Part shown: in pieces, positions 2,806-11,492 of the stretch
Layout of the letters: every line of letters starts with the position of its first letter
Position numbering within the stretch: the first letter of the stretch is position 1
IMG/VR virus record: IMGVR_UViG_2841277917_000004
Span: 1-64,000 of that record
Direction: 5' to 3' (one strand)
DNA: 64,000 nt
From: a virus
Taxonomy: Duplodnaviria > Caudoviricetes
Notes under the pieces: model-generated
Databases searched by the model: none
Seen by the model: only the letters and a program-made list of their open reading frames with translations
What the model was told of the DNA's origin: nothing
Translations under genes and position numbers: made by a program

Positions 2806-4245
2806 ATGTCTATGACCATCGCTAATCCAAGAGTTTTTATTTCTTATGCTTGGACTTCTACAGAGCACGAAGAATGGGTTGTCTCTTTAGCTACACGACT
2901 TAGAGAGTCAGGAGTGGATATAAAACTTGATAAGTGGGATTTGAAAGAAGGGCAGGACATATACGCTTTTATGGAAAGTATGGTAAAAGCAGAGGAAACA
3001 GATAAGGTATTAATTATTTGTGATAAAGGTTATAAAGAACGTGCAGAAAGCAGAAAAGGTGGTGTAGGAACAGAAACACAAATAATTAGTCCAGAAGTGT
3101 ATTCAGATGTAAATCAAGAAAAATTTATTCCGATCGTTTCCGAAAGAAATGATGATGGCGAGGATTATGTTCCAACTTATATGAGAACAAGATTGCATAT
3201 TGATTTATCCTTTGAAGATAGATTTGAAGAGGGCTTTGAAAGGTTACTCAGGAATGTCTACAAACGACCACTTTATCAAAAACCCGCATTAGGTGAGGCT
3301 CCTGAATGGCTTTTTTCCGACGAGATTCCACACTATAAAACTACAAGTGTTCTAAGACAAATCGAAGAGGCTTCATATAGGAATCCAAAGAGAATAAAAC
3401 GATTATCTGAGAGCTTTATTGATTCATTTCTTGAAGATTTAGAGCAATTTAGATTAGAAAATATCGAGGATGTAAATACTTTAGATGATATAATAGTTGA
3501 TAATATTAATAAAATGCTCCCATTAAGAAATGATTATGTTAAATTTTTAGAGGCAGGTATTGACTCTGGAGAGTTAGAAATAGAAACTATAATAACTGTC
3601 TTCGAAAAATTATACGAATATACTCAGCCTTCAAGTGGAACTTCAAGTTATGAGATTCAGTTTGATCATTTTAAATTTTTTATTCATGAGCTTTTTATTT
3701 ACACATCTCTCATATATTTGGAAAAAAGATCTTACGCCGATCTAACTAGACTGCTTACGACTGAATATTTTGTGAAAAATCGTTTTAATGAAGTAACGGC
3801 TTATGATTTCACAGTATTCAAATTTTATATACGCTCATTAGATGAAATAAGAAATACAAGGCTTGATTTAAGGAAGTTTAGTGTTCATGCCCATCTGTTA
3901 GTAGAAAGAAGTACATTAAAAAAATACCCTAAAAGTAAATTGATTGCTATCGATAAATTGTTATACTATCTTTCTGCTATTTTGATCTCAGAAGAGGGGA
4001 AATGGTTCCCTAATACCTACATTTATGCTGAGTATCGTTCTAAGATTGAATTCTTACAAAGATGTAAATCTAGAATATATTTCGAAAAGGCAAAAATACT
4101 TTTTAATGTAACTACTGAGAAAGAATTTAGAGAAATTATTATAGGTTTTAATAATGAATATCAACGTGGCTACCGATCTGGTACAACCCACATTGAAGAC
4201 ATAAGTTTTCACATATCGCCCGAAGATGTTTGTTCTACTCCTTAG
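2806..4245 (+). CDS. SEFIR/TIR-domain protein, putative anti-phage defence
   Basis: N-terminal RVFISYAW...HEEWVVSLATRLRESGVDIKLDKWDL..GQD...FME and GGVGTE motifs typical of SEFIR/TIR_2. Confidence 0.85.
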   Translation: MSMTIANPRVFISYAWTSTEHEEWVVSLATRLRESGVDIKLDKWDLKEGQDIYAFMESMVKAEETDKVLIICDKGYKERAESRKGGVGTETQIISPEVYSDVNQEKFIPIVSERNDDGEDYVPTYMRTRLHIDLSFEDRFEEGFERLLRNVYKRPLYQKPALGEAPEWLFSDEIPHYKTTSVLRQIEEASYRNPKRIKRLSESFIDSFLEDLEQFRLENIEDVNTLDDIIVDNINKMLPLRNDYVKFLEAGIDSGELEIETIITVFEKLYEYTQPSSGTSSYEIQFDHFKFFIHELFIYTSLIYLEKRSYADLTRLLTTEYFVKNRFNEVTAYDFTVFKFYIRSLDEIRNTRLDLRKFSVHAHLLVERSTLKKYPKSKLIAIDKLLYYLSAILISEEGKWFPNTYIYAEYRSKIEFLQRCKSRIYFEKAKILFNVTTEKEFREIIIGFNNEYQRGYRSGTTHIEDISFHISPEDVCSTP

Positions 4246-4286
4246 CATAATAAAATGTGAGTATAAATTCAGTGAATATCATATTA

Positions 4287-4353
4287 AGATAAAATAGTGA
4301 TAACATGTCTTTTCTTTTAGTAGGGGGAAAAACATGTTATCACTATTTTATCT
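4287..4353. repeat. Long inverted repeat with 22-bp arms
   Basis: AGATAAAATAGTGATAACATGT ... ACATGTTATCACTATTTTATCT. Confidence 0.8.
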
Positions 4354-4679
4354 ATTTATATTCACCAGTTCAGTCAAATATATAATTAGATGATGGATGA
4401 GATAAATTTAGGAGAGTAATCATTTGTTTACTTGAAAACTAAATGCAAATATAAAAATGTAATAAATGATGATTTTATTTTCATTCGATTAATTAAATAA
4501 AACAAAAGATAGATTTTGTTAGGAGTAGAAGGGTTTATTACAAATGAGTAAGAATAAAAAATGACATTATAGCAAATGAATAAAGATACTTTGTTATAAT
4601 TTGTCTTTTTTATAGAAGAACATGACGAAGAGGTCAAAAAAATCTTACATCTTTACTAAAAGAATGGTAGTGAATCTAC

Positions 4680-5498: not shown

Positions 5499-5809
5499 AT
5501 CATGGAGTATAGAGCAAAGTAATCAACAAAAATTAAATAAAATACGCAATTCATCAGGAGAGGGGGCGTTATTAGCGCCCCTAAAATTATTTAAAATATA
5601 AAATAATACATGTAATTATTTGGTTAATTATTTGGTTCGATTGATGAAATGTAACAGGGAGATGATTCAATTTTTAATATGCCATTTTCTTACTTGTTAT
5701 TAGCTATAAAAACACTATAATTAGAATGTGATGATCTAAAATATGGCAACAGCGGTTATAGAAATAGCGATTCCAATACTACTAATACATAAGGCATGGA
5801 GAAGAAAAA

Positions 5810-6484
5810 ATGGATATCGTACTTTATTTAGCTTTTGGTTTTATAGATGTAATAGCAATTTTAGCGGTTATTTTTCGTTTCTTTCGTTTCCCAATTAGAA
5901 TGTTTATAAGAGAGTTTGTAATTATTGGAGCAGTATTAACCTTGTCATCATTTGTTGTTCGAAAGGTGTTGAACTTGTCTGAACTTGACCTAGGTATTCA
6001 GTTTATTCTTTATGTGTTATTTTTTAGGTATTTTATTAAAATAAAGATTTTTGATTCATTTTTACTAGCGTCAATAGGCTATTTGTCGTTTAGTGTCATA
6101 CAGCTCATAATTTACAACTCCCTATTATTTGTTGGTGTTGTAACAGATTTAGATGTACAAAGTACAAGCAATATTGGAACTTATTTAATACAGGTTGTAA
6201 CACAAGTTGTTAGTTTTCTGTTTGCTTGGCTATTATATAGGAAAAACCTTGGATTCTCTTTTATTTTATGTCCACCGGATGACGTACAAATAAAAGTAAA
6301 AATCAAAGGTATTAATTTGATTATATATTTAGGAATCTTGGCAAGTATAACAACTCTTTTTTTAACTCCTTATTTATTATTCAATTATCTAAGTTGGATG
6401 CATGTTTTAATTCTGGGATTGATTATAATGCTTTGCTTGCTTTATTATGCGACTAACAGGAAGGATATAGCTGACGTATGGTAG
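5810..6484 (+). CDS. AgrC-like membrane sensor domain with no histidine kinase domain
   Basis: About 7 hydrophobic segments; ends right after the last TM; overlaps the agrB start; no H-box or HATPase motifs. Confidence 0.6.
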   Translation: MDIVLYLAFGFIDVIAILAVIFRFFRFPIRMFIREFVIIGAVLTLSSFVVRKVLNLSELDLGIQFILYVLFFRYFIKIKIFDSFLLASIGYLSFSVIQLIIYNSLLFVGVVTDLDVQSTSNIGTYLIQVVTQVVSFLFAWLLYRKNLGFSFILCPPDDVQIKVKIKGINLIIYLGILASITTLFLTPYLLFNYLSWMHVLILGLIIMLCLLYYATNRKDIADVW

Positions 6485-7005
6485 AAAAAGTCGCTGAAAC
6501 AATAGCTAAGAAAATTAGCGCAGCATCTCCCAATGAACCTGTGAGTGTGGACGTATTAGTTTACTCTTTAATCATACAGTTCTATGGGTTGACGATAATA
6601 ATTAGTTCATTGATAATAGGAGCGAGTACAGGAAAGCTTCTTGAGACGTTAATTGCCTTGGTTTCCTTTACTGTACTCCGTTTGCTTTCAGGGGGTTGTC
6701 ATGCGAAAAATATGTTTATTTGCTACTGTGTCTCTACTATAGTTATCTCGCTAATACCTCATATATCAATTGACAAAACTTATGCTATATATATAAATGC
6801 TGCTACGTTTTTCTTAGTTGCCTTCTATGCACCTAGAAGTCAGGAGATAAATAATATTCCTCTATCTGCATTGCCATTTCTTAAAGTAGCTTCAATTTTA
6901 ATAATATGCTTTGGATTTTATCTAGATAATTCAGTTATTTCCCTTTCGTTGTTTGCTCAGGCTATTACGTTAATTCCTGTGCTTGAAAGGGGGTGTCAGC
7001 CATGA
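6478..7005 (+). CDS. agrB: Accessory gene regulator B (AIP-processing membrane peptidase)
   Basis: LRLLSGGCHAKNMFIC (R...GG.H......C catalytic His/Cys) and YAP motif. Confidence 0.9.
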   Translation: MVEKVAETIAKKISAASPNEPVSVDVLVYSLIIQFYGLTIIISSLIIGASTGKLLETLIALVSFTVLRLLSGGCHAKNMFICYCVSTIVISLIPHISIDKTYAIYINAATFFLVAFYAPRSQEINNIPLSALPFLKVASILIICFGFYLDNSVISLSLFAQAITLIPVLERGCQP

Positions 7006-7124
7006 ATAAAAGGATTGCAAAGTGGACTTCTAAATATCTTCAAAGTACAGCAAAGATATTCGCCGTGTCCTACAAGGCACTTATTGGAGCACCAGAAGTT
7101 CCTTCAGAGTTGATTAAAAAATGA
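7002..7124 (+). CDS. agrD: AgrD-like cyclic autoinducer precursor, 40 aa: MNKRIAKWTSKYLQSTAKIFAVSYKALIGAPEVPSELIKK
   Basis: Read manually; ATGA overlaps with agrB stop and with lytTR start; RBS gaaagggggtg; amphipathic leader and PEVPSEL tail. Confidence 0.85.
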   Translation: MNKRIAKWTSKYLQSTAKIFAVSYKALIGAPEVPSELIKK

Positions 7125-7510
7125 TTGAAAAAATGGCTGATTCTATGAAAATCATGGCGATTTGTGCTGATAGGAATTATGACAGTACAGACTATAAGCT
7201 AATAGATTTGGATGATATTTTTTTTATCGGATTTATTCATCAAGGAAAGGTTAAAATTTTAACTTTCCACACAAAATACGGAAAGTATCATCCGATCGCT
7301 ACTTTGGAAGGGTATCGAGTGTTGTTAGAGGATCTTAGATTTTGCTCATTAGATACTGTAAATGTGGTGAATATGAATAAAATTCAATCTGTGGTTGAGA
7401 GTGAAACCGACATTAGGGTTTACTTTGAAGACGGCTCATATACTACTGTTTCAAGAGCAAAATCAGTTTTAGTTGAAAATTACCCAAGACAGACTATCGA
7501 ATTAAGATAG
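7121..7510 (+). CDS. Stand-alone LytTR-domain regulator (no receiver domain)
   Basis: LIDLDDIFFI...FHTKYGKY...NVVNMNKI...VSR pattern of LytTR; only 129 aa. Confidence 0.8.
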   Translation: MIEKMADSMKIMAICADRNYDSTDYKLIDLDDIFFIGFIHQGKVKILTFHTKYGKYHPIATLEGYRVLLEDLRFCSLDTVNVVNMNKIQSVVESETDIRVYFEDGSYTTVSRAKSVLVENYPRQTIELR

Positions 7511-7524
7511 TCTTCTTTTTTTTA
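7491..7524 (+). terminator. Intrinsic terminator closing the agr-like operon
   Basis: AGACTATC-gaattaa-GATAGTCT followed by a T-run. Confidence 0.7.
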
Positions 7525-7722: not shown

Positions 7723-8025
7723 ATGAATGAGATTCCAATTGATATATTTAAATGTACTTTTAACTATAGATTAGAAACTGGGGCTTGGACGTGGGAACTT
7801 GTAACTAACACAAAAGAAGCAGAAAGTATTGATCCAGACTATCAATTAGCTTCAATTAATGATTTGCATGACTATGCCGCGGCTTGTGGATACATATTTG
7901 AAGGAATTGTGAGGGTGTTTGAAGGAGAATTTAAATGGGTTGAATTAACTACTGAAGAAGGAGAAGACTTTTGCGAATATGTAAGTACCTCATTTATAAA
8001 TATAAGCTCTGACAAGTATATTTAA
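7723..8025 (+). CDS. Hypothetical protein, paralog of 8401..8742
   Basis: Shared EA.SID..Y.LASINDLH.Y....G..FEGI..V.EG..KW. Confidence 0.7.
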   Translation: MNEIPIDIFKCTFNYRLETGAWTWELVTNTKEAESIDPDYQLASINDLHDYAAACGYIFEGIVRVFEGEFKWVELTTEEGEDFCEYVSTSFINISSDKYI

Positions 8026-8086: not shown

Positions 8087-8311
8087 TTATTTGTCATTAG
8101 TAGCTTCGATACCTAGTAAATAGTCTGAAGAAACATTAAAAAAAACACTAAGTGAATGTAATACTTCTATTGAAGTAGAGCGATAGCCAGTTTCTATTGC
8201 ACTAATTGCTTGTTTGGATAATCCAATAGCTTCGCCTAGCTCATCTTGCTTTAGATTTTGAATCATTCTTAGTTCACGTATACGAAGTCCAAATTCTTTT
8301 CTATTAAACAT
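8087..8311 (-). CDS. XRE-family HTH transcriptional regulator
   Basis: RIRELR...LKQDELGEAIGLSKQAISAIETG...VSSDYLLG. Confidence 0.9.
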   Translation of the reverse strand: MFNRKEFGLRIRELRMIQNLKQDELGEAIGLSKQAISAIETGYRSTSIEVLHSLSVFFNVSSDYLLGIEATNDK

Positions 8312-8400: not shown

Positions 8401-8742
8401 GTGATCAGTTTGGATACTAGCATTGTATCGGAAATAACTGCTATTGCCAATCCAATTAACAAACCAATTAAAATATTTATTGTAAACTATGAATATGAAG
8501 ATTTGTACTTATGGAATTTAATAAGTAGCGAATCAGAAGCTAGAAGTATCGATTCAGAGTATAAATTGGCATCAATAAATGATTTACATGCTTATATAGA
8601 GGAGGGAGGAGAGGTGTTTGAAGGAATTATTAAAGTTAAAGAGGGGCTATGTAAATGGTTTGAAAAGTCAACAATGACAGAGGATATGTTAGAAGATTAT
8701 TATTGCGAATATAGACTGATCGAAAAAAAGCATATGCAATAA
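8401..8742 (+). CDS. Hypothetical protein, paralog of 7723..8025
   Basis: Shared LASINDLH motif block. Confidence 0.7.
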   Translation: MISLDTSIVSEITAIANPINKPIKIFIVNYEYEDLYLWNLISSESEARSIDSEYKLASINDLHAYIEEGGEVFEGIIKVKEGLCKWFEKSTMTEDMLEDYYCEYRLIEKKHMQ

Positions 8743-10065: not shown

Positions 10066-10353
10066 ATGAATGATTATTTTAATGAAGTAGTAAATGCCTT
10101 AACCCATGAAGATTTTCAGGTATTAGGTTGTTTATTTGATGTAAAAGCAACAGCTTCATTTAAGGCAAAAAATAAAAATAAAATAATGGAGGATACAAAC
10201 TTTAGTACTGCCGTACTTAGAAGAATAGTCAATAGGTTGATTGCTTGCCGTTTAATTGAAATATCTACAATGGTTAATGGTAAAAGGTCTTATTATCTAT
10301 CTAAGTATGGGGTTCAAGCTATTAATAATTCACTTAAAGGAGTTGTAGAGTAA
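10066..10353 (+). CDS. Small winged-helix protein, putative TubR adaptor
   Basis: wHTH-like C-terminus (LRRIVNRL...LIE......YYLSKYG); translationally coupled to tubZ. Confidence 0.55.
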   Translation: MNDYFNEVVNALTHEDFQVLGCLFDVKATASFKAKNKNKIMEDTNFSTAVLRRIVNRLIACRLIEISTMVNGKRSYYLSKYGVQAINNSLKGVVE

Positions 10354-11492
10354 TGATAGCTTTTATTGGTTGTGGGGGAGCTGGAGGTAATATTGCGGAT
10401 GAAGCATCAAAGGCTGGATTCGTCACTGGAGCAATAAACTTCTCCAAACAAGATTTGGATTCACTGGATAACGTTCAACTTAAATTACGAATACCAGGAA
10501 GTGAGGGGGTAGGTCATGATAGGGACGAAGCCAAGCGCTTATTATCAAAACATTATAAAATGTGCATAGAATGGATCGTTGAACATTTTTCAAACCCTTC
10601 TATTGAGGTAATAATTTTTGCAACTTCATCTGGTGGAGGTACTGGAAGTGCAATTACTCCAATGTTAGTAGAACTCATGAAACAAATGATGCCAGAAAAA
10701 ACATACTCAGTTATTGTAGCAACTCCAGATTTGTCTGAAGTCGATAATATTCAGGCTAATACTTTAGATACAATTGGGGAGCTGTCTGGTTTAGATATTA
10801 GTATTATTCCGTTAGATAATAATCAAATTAAAAAATATAGCAATATAGGTACTAAAAGTGAGATTTATTTACTTACTAATACTACGGTTATTAATCACTT
10901 AGCCATGCTACATGGCTATACCGAAAAAGCTTCTAAAAATGGAACATTTGACAAAAGAGATTTTAAAACTACTTTCAAGACAAAGGGAATACTTACTTTC
11001 TCAGAGTTTGATATATTTTCTACAGTAAACAATACATTTAATATATCTGCTGAATTAGTTGCCGATCGAATCCATGAAGAATGGCAGAAATCTATTTACG
11101 TACCTGTCCCTAAAGATTTTGTTACAAGAGCAGCAGTTATTTTTGATGGCAAAGAAGACATGTTGCAACATATTAATCATGAATTAATCTTCTCTTATTT
11201 TAACCAAGGTACTCCAATTGATCTTTTTGAGGGGTTTTATTCTAATCATGAAACTAATAAAATAATGACGGTGTTAAGCGGTCTACCGTGGATCAATTCA
11301 AGATTAACTCAAATTGATAATCAAATTGAAAAAAACAAAGACAAGATACAACAAATCTTTTCAAGAGAAAATCAATTCCAAGCTAAGTCTACGAATCTCT
11401 TTAAAAAACTTAGAGTTGCCAATGAAACTGAGGAGAGTAAACCATCTAGTAAATTATCTGCAATGGATATTTTGAAAAAATATCAAAACTAA
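10353..11492 (+). CDS. tubZ: Tubulin/FtsZ-family GTPase (TubZ-like)
   Basis: IGCGGAGGNI, GVGHD, and the GGGTGS tubulin signature. Confidence 0.85.
   Translation: MIAFIGCGGAGGNIADEASKAGFVTGAINFSKQDLDSLDNVQLKLRIPGSEGVGHDRDEAKRLLSKHYKMCIEWIVEHFSNPSIEVIIFATSSGGGTGSAITPMLVELMKQMMPEKTYSVIVATPDLSEVDNIQANTLDTIGELSGLDISIIPLDNNQIKKYSNIGTKSEIYLLTNTTVINHLAMLHGYTEKASKNGTFDKRDFKTTFKTKGILTFSEFDIFSTVNNTFNISAELVADRIHEEWQKSIYVPVPKDFVTRAAVIFDGKEDMLQHINHELIFSYFNQGTPIDLFEGFYSNHETNKIMTVLSGLPWINSRLTQIDNQIEKNKDKIQQIFSRENQFQAKSTNLFKKLRVANETEESKPSSKLSAMDILKKYQN

Follow-up and report, generated by a model that had tools for sequence, protein, structure and literature searches.

A kinase-less agr-type operon in a temperate phage element and its relatives: candidate peptide sensing without phosphotransfer

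Introduction

Agr is the textbook system of peptide quorum sensing in Gram-positive bacteria, and is defined by a phosphorelay from AgrC to AgrA and by a lactone or thiolactone pheromone. Could such a system operate once its phosphorelay domains have been dropped? This question is raised by an operon located at positions 5810-7510 (+ strand) of a 64,000-nucleotide stretch of DNA (hereafter the window), which covers positions 1 to 64,000 of IMG/VR record IMGVR_UViG_2841277917_000004, a provirus of 77.7 kb from a soil bacterium. The operon comprises four overlapping genes encoding a membrane protein (here called M), the peptidase/cyclase AgrB, a short AgrD precursor and a stand-alone LytTR protein (here called R), with a promoter-like site on the 5' side and a terminator on the 3' side. 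An initial annotation of this DNA proposed that a cyclic peptide is read without phosphorylation, M holding or releasing R to give the phage a density sensor, or alternatively that the operon jams the Agr system of the host. We report here that the kinase- and receiver-less state is conserved, that M is by comparison of AgrC type and that R is AgrA-like, in agreement with the core of this interpretation. Two of its elements, a peptide ring closed by Ser23 and the jamming of host Agr, are not supported.

Results and Discussion

Organization of the operon

M is encoded at 5810-6484 (+ strand; 224 aa) and belongs to phrog_15604 (E 3.3e-53). The agrB gene follows at 6478-7005 (+ strand; 175 aa; Pfam PF04647, E 2.9e-17; phrog_10353), then agrD at 7002-7124 (+ strand; 40 aa from ATG 7002; phrog_36013, E 4.3e-4) and the R gene at 7121-7510 (+ strand; 129 aa; LytTR domain PF04397, E 1.5e-7; phrog_15081, E 1.2e-23). 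The PHROG label of the R family, 'peptidase', is a mislabel. ATG 7002 is preceded by a strong Shine-Dalgarno sequence, GAAAGGGGG; an alternative AgrD start, GTG 6993, would give 43 aa. Each of the three gene junctions is an overlap of stop and start codon (ATGGTAG, ATGA and ATGA), so translational coupling of the four genes is plausible.

A terminator-like hairpin at the end of the preceding gene (5562-5582, + strand) marks the left boundary of the unit and is followed by a promoter-like site, TTGTTA-16-TATAAT, with 10 of 12 consensus matches (5694-5721, + strand). On the right, an intrinsic-terminator-like hairpin of 8 pairs followed by a T run overlaps the R stop codon (7491-7513 or, in a wider delimitation, 7491-7523; + strand). 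We regard the operon as a self-contained unit, because it has a hairpin and a promoter-like site upstream and a hairpin with a T run downstream. The four-gene arrangement is, in our judgement, far more than chance, since each gene matches its own PHROG family and the order recurs in many independent loci. The gene content described in the initial annotation was recovered in full: four genes closed by a terminator, a membrane protein of about seven transmembrane helices (TM) ending right after the last one, an AgrB with intact His and Cys, a 40-aa AgrD with a PEVPSEL tail and no Cys, and a 129-aa protein in which Pfam gives a LytTR domain only, with no receiver (REC).

The kinase-less module recurs in phages and in chromosomes

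When the operon was compared by blastn with the phage collection, no match was obtained. At the protein level, M was found in eight records of this collection (Brevibacillus phages Emery, Davies and Abouo; Paenibacillus larvae phages Paisley and Harrison) and R in three. The genes annotated in Abouo, Emery and Harrison encode, in this order, a membrane protein, AgrB, a small peptide and a 'peptidase' that corresponds to R, and the cassette adjoins the integrase or immunity region. The same M-AgrB-AgrD-R order (M-B-D-R) is present in two IMG/VR proviruses and in dozens of genomes, and different families share the architecture at 20-65% identity. The M protein closest to that of the window (95% identity) is named from Brevibacillus laterosporus.

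A locus search with a narrow M alignment gave only two viral and four genomic loci, and a whole-genome survey was used instead. M was detected in 35 of 401 sampled Bacilli genomes (E <= 1e-10), in 24 of the 61 genomes from the family of the Brevibacillus anchor genome and in 81 of the 136 from the family of the Paenibacillus anchor genome (both at E <= 1e-20), many of the latter with multiple copies. The module is not phage-specific: it is common in the chromosomes of two families.

Profile searching yielded 259 M-family representatives. Among the best 150 of these 259 none is a kinase and 149 are at most 291 aa long; the exception, of 408 aa, is a fusion of M with AgrB. Neither a HATPase_c nor a receiver domain was found in any of five complete records, three of them phage genomes and two of them proviruses with a completeness rating of 100%. 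The record of the window itself has no match to the receiver domain PF00072 and no HATPase match at the cut-off; one sub-threshold HATPase_c_5 match of 12.6 bits lies inside another gene. The absence of kinase and receiver domains is thus, as far as these profile searches go, a conserved condition of a large family and not decay. The possibility attached to the initial annotation, that homologues normally carry these domains and that this copy has simply decayed, is contradicted both by the recurrent M-B-D-R order and by the lack of any kinase among the best 150 of the 259 representatives.

M resembles the sensor domain of AgrC-type kinases

Neither Pfam nor NCBIfam gave a match to M at E <= 1, families of CAAX/Abi proteases included. 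A structure predicted from only seven close relatives was poor (predicted local distance difference test, pLDDT, 44.8) and was replaced by an AlphaFold2 model based on an alignment of 117 relatives (pLDDT 95.9; predicted template modelling score 0.91). This model shows seven long helices, the last one ending at residue 223 of 224, which leaves no space for a kinase domain. A Foldseek search of the PDB with this model gave no solved relative (best E 0.77, TM-score <= 0.29). An identity of M as a CAAX- or MroQ-type protease was considered and rejected on the absence of a Pfam or NCBIfam match and of any PDB match better than E 0.77.

Relatives were found instead among longer proteins. In other Bacilli, the M profile picks up proteins of 416-453 aa through their N-terminal 200 residues, with per-genome E values as low as 1.6e-17. 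One of these proteins, at locus L019, adjoins agrB and carries HATPase_c and HATPase_c_5 domains. Alignment of the M family by hhalign with the N-termini of eight receptors from agrB loci gave a probability of 99.4% (E 1.3e-21, 187 columns). Seven receptors with an M-like sensor domain (L049 and L097-L102; 406-450 aa) have a cytoplasmic half of about 200 aa in which no Pfam HATPase was found (0 of 7) and no PDB sequence match; they may be very divergent kinases or pseudokinases. As these receptors were not confirmed as kinases, the comparison was repeated with 22 relatives of the L019 protein carrying PF14689, PF02518 and PF14501. The match spanned TM1-TM5 (97.9%, E 3.7e-13, 144 columns). A structure search of the ESM Atlas with M also reached a 437-aa HATPase_c_5 kinase cluster, with a TM-score of 0.60 over 192 residues. 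Because of the two hhalign comparisons and the ESM Atlas match, we identify M as an AgrC-type sensor domain standing alone.

By the positive-inside rule, the N-terminus of M would be outside the cell and the C-terminus inside. Conserved polar residues are S47, R51, D60, Q64, Q98 and Q128, together with PP155-156; under this topology the polar cluster would fall within the outer half of the bilayer. The cytoplasmic loop between TM5 and TM6 would then contain the most conserved motif, G-F-S-F-x-x-x-P-P-[HD] (residues 148-157). The P-P-H loop is missing from the aligned receptors and is therefore a trait of the kinase-less form.

M genes also occur in tandem arrays of up to five copies, located 5' of a single B-D-R set. 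Phage Emery has two tandem M genes, and its extra M is 49.5% identical to the Abouo M as against about 37% to its own B-adjacent M. The B-adjacent M proteins cluster with loci of the same peptide type. Such arrays and the extra M of Emery fit a receptor better than a processing enzyme, as judged from gene order and identity. Arrays of three to five M genes were observed at G004:C332:2065-6478, G002:C1:5931530-5935057 and G003:C2:163246-166114, the first of which precedes one AgrB-(AgrD)-R. At another locus, L010 of Paenibacillus sp. RC67, the M gene (3905-4657 of the locus) is an orphan sensor, with no AgrB or R match within 4 kb on either side.

AgrB is intact and linked to M

In S. aureus, AgrB cuts off the C-terminal tail of AgrD and joins the new carboxyl group to an internal Cys, giving a five-residue ring, as stated in the available part of PMC9388083. 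Among 75 distinct M-linked AgrB sequences, residues R68, G73, H75 and C82 are invariant, with a His-to-Cys spacing of +7. H75 and C82 presumably correspond to H77 and C84 of the S. aureus protein. In 77 loci with both M and AgrB, M is immediately 5' of agrB, and in one 408-aa protein (P0136) an M domain is followed by an AgrB domain; this may be a genuine fusion, or it may result from a frameshift where the stop and start codons overlap.

A conserved lysine is the candidate ring residue of AgrD

The AgrD of the window contains no Cys and ends with the tail G-A-P-E-V-P-S-E-L-I-K-K. A homologue in phage Abouo is named 'cyclic lactone autoinducer peptide' in RefSeq. We anchored 59 distinct AgrD peptides on their shared P-x-E-L tail and set the cut five residues before that Pro. 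This rule places Cys at -5 in both Cys-type peptides of the set and agrees with what we take to be the situation in S. aureus AgrD. In the window it predicts cleavage after Ile28.

The peptides then fall into two classes. Cys or Ser occupies -5 in 24 of the 59, none of which has Lys at -4. Of the other 35, with neither Cys nor Ser at -5, all but two carry Lys at -4 (33 peptides); these two come from L018 (Ser at -4) and L071 (probably a wrong open reading frame). Six more peptides with unusual tails also display K-x-x-hydrophobic-G, and Gly stands right after the predicted cut in 26 of the 33 Lys-class peptides. The window peptide has Tyr at -5 and thus departs from the classical Cys/Ser ring position.

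The initial annotation, noting the lack of Cys, had assigned ring closure to Ser23. Only 12 of the 33 Lys-class peptides have Ser, Thr or Cys at this position, and in phages Emery and Harrison the peptide lacks any hydroxyl or thiol side chain there, whereas the position of Lys25 is Lys in all 33 and is complementary to the Cys/Ser of other clades. On this difference in conservation (12/33 against 33/33), a Ser23 lactone was discarded as the general ring. A Lys-closed ring of four residues contains 7 + 3x3 = 16 atoms, the same number as a Cys- or Ser-closed ring of five (4 + 4x3 = 16). Because of this equal ring size and of the strict complementarity between Lys and Cys/Ser, the ring is most likely closed by Lys25, which would give a K-A-L-I macrolactam of 16 ring atoms.

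R is an AgrA-like LytTR protein with altered contact residues

Among solved structures, R comes closest to the LytTR domain of S. aureus AgrA (E 4.6e-6). In the initial annotation, SLDTV was read in place of the usual LytTR contact motif, and the hidden Markov model alignment indeed sets S-L-D-T-V against R-C-H-N-S of AgrA. Among 24 R proteins, F-x-x-L-D-x stands opposite F-F-R-C-H-N-S, and the hallmark of the family is L-D-[ST] where AgrA reads C-H-N. D78, which is nearly invariant, faces His200 and the Thr79 of the window faces Asn201, two AgrA residues that we take to be base contacts. The Arg of a C-terminal V-S-R motif, placed by eye, would correspond to AgrA Arg233. From these substitutions, R may bind DNA with altered specificity or act on a protein partner.

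Locus L018 (G002:C1:5932925-5936557) has three M genes in tandem, then agrB, agrD and a gene for a LytTR-GGDEF fusion (GGDEF E 9.9e-23); a LytTR domain can therefore precede a non-DNA output. At this locus, an agr-type peptide system would act through cyclic-di-GMP. Locus L024 encodes a protein with a tandem double LytTR.

Origin of the module

In other Bacilli, the receptor gene lies directly 5' of agrB in seven of eight receptor loci. Four of the eight have the order receptor-AgrB-AgrD-regulator, with a regulator of 240-245 aa; the two such regulators scanned with Pfam are REC+LytTR proteins. Since these loci share their gene order with M-B-D-R and the LytTR domain closest to R is that of AgrA, the simplest history would be an agr operon of the same order in which the receptor lost its kinase and the regulator its receiver.

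A model for readout without phosphotransfer

A phosphorylation-free readout is the most economical reading of these comparisons, because the lack of kinase and receiver is conserved, M is of AgrC type and R is AgrA-like. AgrB, with its His/Cys dyad, would cut the tail of the 40-aa AgrD after Ile28 and release a secreted peptide, attack of Lys25 on the acyl-enzyme closing the ring. M would bind this peptide from outside, through the polar cluster kept in the outer membrane half, and would hold or release soluble R, probably via the cytoplasmic G-F-S-F..P-P-H loop. Freed R would then act on DNA or on another partner, giving a density signal for the prophage or lysogen population. Taken as a complete, self-transcribed agr-derived quorum-sensing operon that works without phosphotransfer, the locus is read in this way tentatively, at a little under an even chance. 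A more elaborate proposal combines a lysine-closed, hydrolysis-stable macrolactam, a kinase-less AgrC sensor and direct gating of a receiver-less LytTR protein in temperate phages of Brevibacillus and Paenibacillus. These phages would have their own pherotypes and sometimes 'eavesdropping' sensors, and would communicate phage to phage or report lysogen density in parallel to arbitrium. That all of this holds together we consider rather unlikely.

Several observations weigh against readout without phosphotransfer. DNA binding by R is uncertain given Asp and Thr opposite His200 and Asn201, and the two 9-bp direct repeats of LytTR regulatory systems (LRS; 11-13 bp apart and 4-11 bp 5' of the -35 hexamer) were not found: no 9-12-9 repeats of this type lie upstream of the -35 hexamer, and the one 7-of-9 repeat pair, 22 bp 5' of it, reaches a count also attained by 15% of shuffles. 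A general repeat search reported none. We know of no natural Lys-lactam autoinducing peptide (AIP), and cleavage by hydrolysis, yielding a linear peptide, would fit as well. A stand-alone R, which in keeping with the model accompanies 36 of the 39 Lys-type loci, was not detected in 12 of the 22 Ser-type M-B-D loci, where the R model used comes mainly from Lys-type members and fails to recognise divergent R. At L039-L043 and L058-L062 nothing recognisable follows M-B-D. In L035 and L050, M-B-D is followed by a REC+LytTR regulator. In L051 (G299:C5:63500-69738), M-B-D-R is followed by a 265-aa REC+LytTR regulator and a 277-aa HATPase_c_5 protein (E 1.6e-12) with a short hydrophobic N-terminal part, a layout reminiscent of a split receptor kinase. 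Some lineages may thus have a separate kinase partner. Finally, M is constantly linked to agrB and once fused to it, and may work with AgrB and not with R.

Alternative explanations

The linkage of M to agrB is the starting point of another explanation, in which M would be an accessory of AgrB, acting like MroQ in maturation, leader removal, peptide export or producer protection, and R would be an independent regulator or anti-regulator. There is a precedent, as AIP maturation in S. aureus needs a second membrane protein, MroQ (PMC9388083, available part). The overlap of M with agrB in nearly all loci examined, the P0136 fusion and the M-B-D loci without downstream R (e.g. L039-L043, L058-L062) all speak for such a role. 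However, M is homologous to an AgrC-type kinase sensor domain over TM1-TM5 or more, has no Pfam match, CAAX/Abi proteases included, and its conserved residues (S47, R51, D60, Q64, Q98, Q128 and PP155-156) form no recognisable protease motif. Adjacency is also no argument for processing, as ancestral-looking operons have the receptor directly before agrB as well, and tandem M genes before one AgrB fit paralogous receptors better. We regard the accessory role as unlikely. Signalling could otherwise depend on phosphorylation after all, with M sensing the peptide, a kinase and a regulator encoded elsewhere in the host (a split AgrC) transmitting the signal and R modulating it. The gene sets of L051 (M-B-D-R, 265-aa REC+LytTR, 277-aa HATPase_c_5 protein) and of L035/L050 are what this would predict. 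Yet none of the three complete phage genomes and two complete proviruses with M-B-D-R has a HATPase_c or REC domain, a stand-alone R is kept in 36 of 39 Lys-type loci, and a full-length AgrC-like kinase is absent from four of five host-like genomes, in a survey that included no dedicated search for short kinases of the L051 type. A split AgrC is in our estimation distinctly improbable as an account of the module.

The peptide or R might instead serve interference, jamming host agr or the M-type systems of rival prophages. One host-like genome (G423) holds six M-linked AgrB loci and peptides vary between loci, so that cross-talk among co-resident systems is conceivable, and the substitutions of R at the AgrA DNA-contact positions would suit such a role. 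Nevertheless the canonical target seems to be missing: four of the five host-like genomes have no full-length AgrC-like kinase of the modelled family, and 12 of the 14 AgrB matches in these genomes adjoin M. A pure jammer would moreover need no conserved M and R (36 of 39 loci). Interference has only a small chance of being the function of the operon and the jamming of host Agr, put forward in the initial annotation, is unlikely on the same counts, whereas cross-talk between co-resident M-type systems is possible. The sole full-length AgrC-like gene of the five genomes (G427:C190:766-2094) adjoins an AgrB gene, is interrupted by two in-frame TAA codons and may be a pseudogene; an M-B-D-R locus is present in the same genome. 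As for a decaying agrBDCA remnant that no longer signals, the missing kinase and receiver domains and the Cys-less peptide are what one would expect of it. The four reading frames are intact, however, the architecture is shared between families at 20-65% identity, the AgrB catalytic residues are invariant and the fold of M is predicted at pLDDT 95.9 from co-variation in 117 relatives, so that decay is scarcely credible.

Comparison with known systems

The operon shares with canonical agrBDCA of the S. aureus type the His/Cys dyad of AgrB, a short AgrD whose leader is amphipathic and whose P-x-E-L tail is charged, a membrane sensor homologous to the AgrC sensor domain and a LytTR output domain closest to that of AgrA. 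It differs by the absence of dimerisation/phosphotransfer (DHp) and ATPase domains on the sensor and of a receiver on the LytTR protein, by its sensor-B-D-regulator order, by Lys at -4 without Cys/Ser at -5, and by D-T opposite AgrA H200/N201.

Streptococcal LRS consist of a soluble LytTR regulator and a membrane inhibitor, according to the part of PMC6193735 at hand. HdrRM and BrsRM of Streptococcus mutans, as presented there, resemble the module in having a receiver-less soluble LytTR protein co-transcribed with a membrane protein; they lack a phosphorelay and their induction is linked to cell density, and it is to these systems that the module can be likened. Unlike their DUF2154-type inhibitor, the membrane protein is here an AgrC-type 7-TM protein (M has no Pfam match). 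Instead of R-M, the order is M first and R last, agrB and agrD separating the two, and a dedicated peptide is encoded.

Phage-borne agr genes are themselves already known. The Clostridioides difficile phage phiCDHM1 carries agrB, agrD and agrC and no agrA (PMC3901668, as outlined in a review). In this summary it is likewise an agr-derived cassette devoid of part of the canonical set; in our case the kinase and receiver domains are missing and the LytTR protein is present. The AimP/AimR arbitrium system of SPbeta-like phages offers another parallel, with a phage-encoded secreted peptide proposed to report lysogen or infection density, and the element studied here is SPbeta-like in appearance. 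The arbitrium peptide is linear, imported and bound by a cytoplasmic tetratricopeptide repeat receptor. The proteins are unrelated, and here the peptide would be processed by AgrB and the receptor candidate is a membrane protein.

We found no description in the literature of a module combining a kinase-less AgrC-like sensor with a receiver-less LytTR protein, nor of the M family. In the available parts of the papers on Brevibacillus and P. larvae phages, 'accessory gene regulator B' appears only in tables or legends, and one of them lists the R homologue as a peptidase. The AIP of P. polymyxa is a classical Cys peptide in the accessible part of PMC12180512. Our literature search returned no Lys-closed AIP or Lys-type AgrD, and published lists of AgrD precursors (PMC12180512) may already hold some. 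The module is thus common in related bacteria and their phages and apparently undescribed.

A large natural family retains the genes for making the peptide, the membrane domain of the sensor and the LytTR domain, both phosphorelay domains having been dropped. A second defining feature of agr is also changed, the ring-forming Cys/Ser being replaced by a Lys one position later. If the proposed mechanism is true, it would show how a sequestration switch can arise from a two-component receptor, and the module would be the first LRS with a known ligand. An amide-closed, chemically stable pheromone would make a third chemical class of agr pheromone, and temperate phages would have a second peptide communication system. 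The module is accessible to experiment, with isolated phages (Abouo, Emery, Davies and Harrison) and their hosts, an operon of about 1.7 kb and a short predicted peptide.

Genomic context

The provirus carries an integrase, a TubZ/PhuZ-like gene and an HNH endonuclease, and also encodes Sak4, a DnaB helicase, a primase, RecJ, a DNA polymerase of 1319 aa, and DNA and RNA ligases. The TubZ/PhuZ-like gene lies at 10353-11492 of the window; its 379-aa product matches the phage tubulin (PhuZ) PHROG (E 5.6e-8) and phrog_17961. Because of this PhuZ-type gene and of the large replication module at 36-48 kb, the gene content suggests a large SPbeta-like temperate phage or a plasmid-like prophage.

Two copies of a tandem 12-bp repeat (5613-5636, + strand) lie about 57 bp 5' of the -35 hexamer. 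This repeat is not kept in related loci, and a separate repeat search did not call a direct repeat there. Five Brevibacillus phage loci (L001, L002, L006, L007 and L021) have a common purine-rich leader about 40-90 bp 5' of M, possibly a regulatory element or a small open reading frame, which is absent from the window.

Two genes 5' of the operon, a 479-aa protein (2806-4245) belongs to PHROG 11745 (E 1e-136); its N-terminus is, in our impression, presumably reminiscent of TIR-type domains. On the 3' side, two small proteins (7723-8025, 100 aa; 8401-8742, 113 aa) are paralogous and share a long conserved stretch. Between their genes lies a divergent gene of the XRE helix-turn-helix type (8087-8311, - strand).

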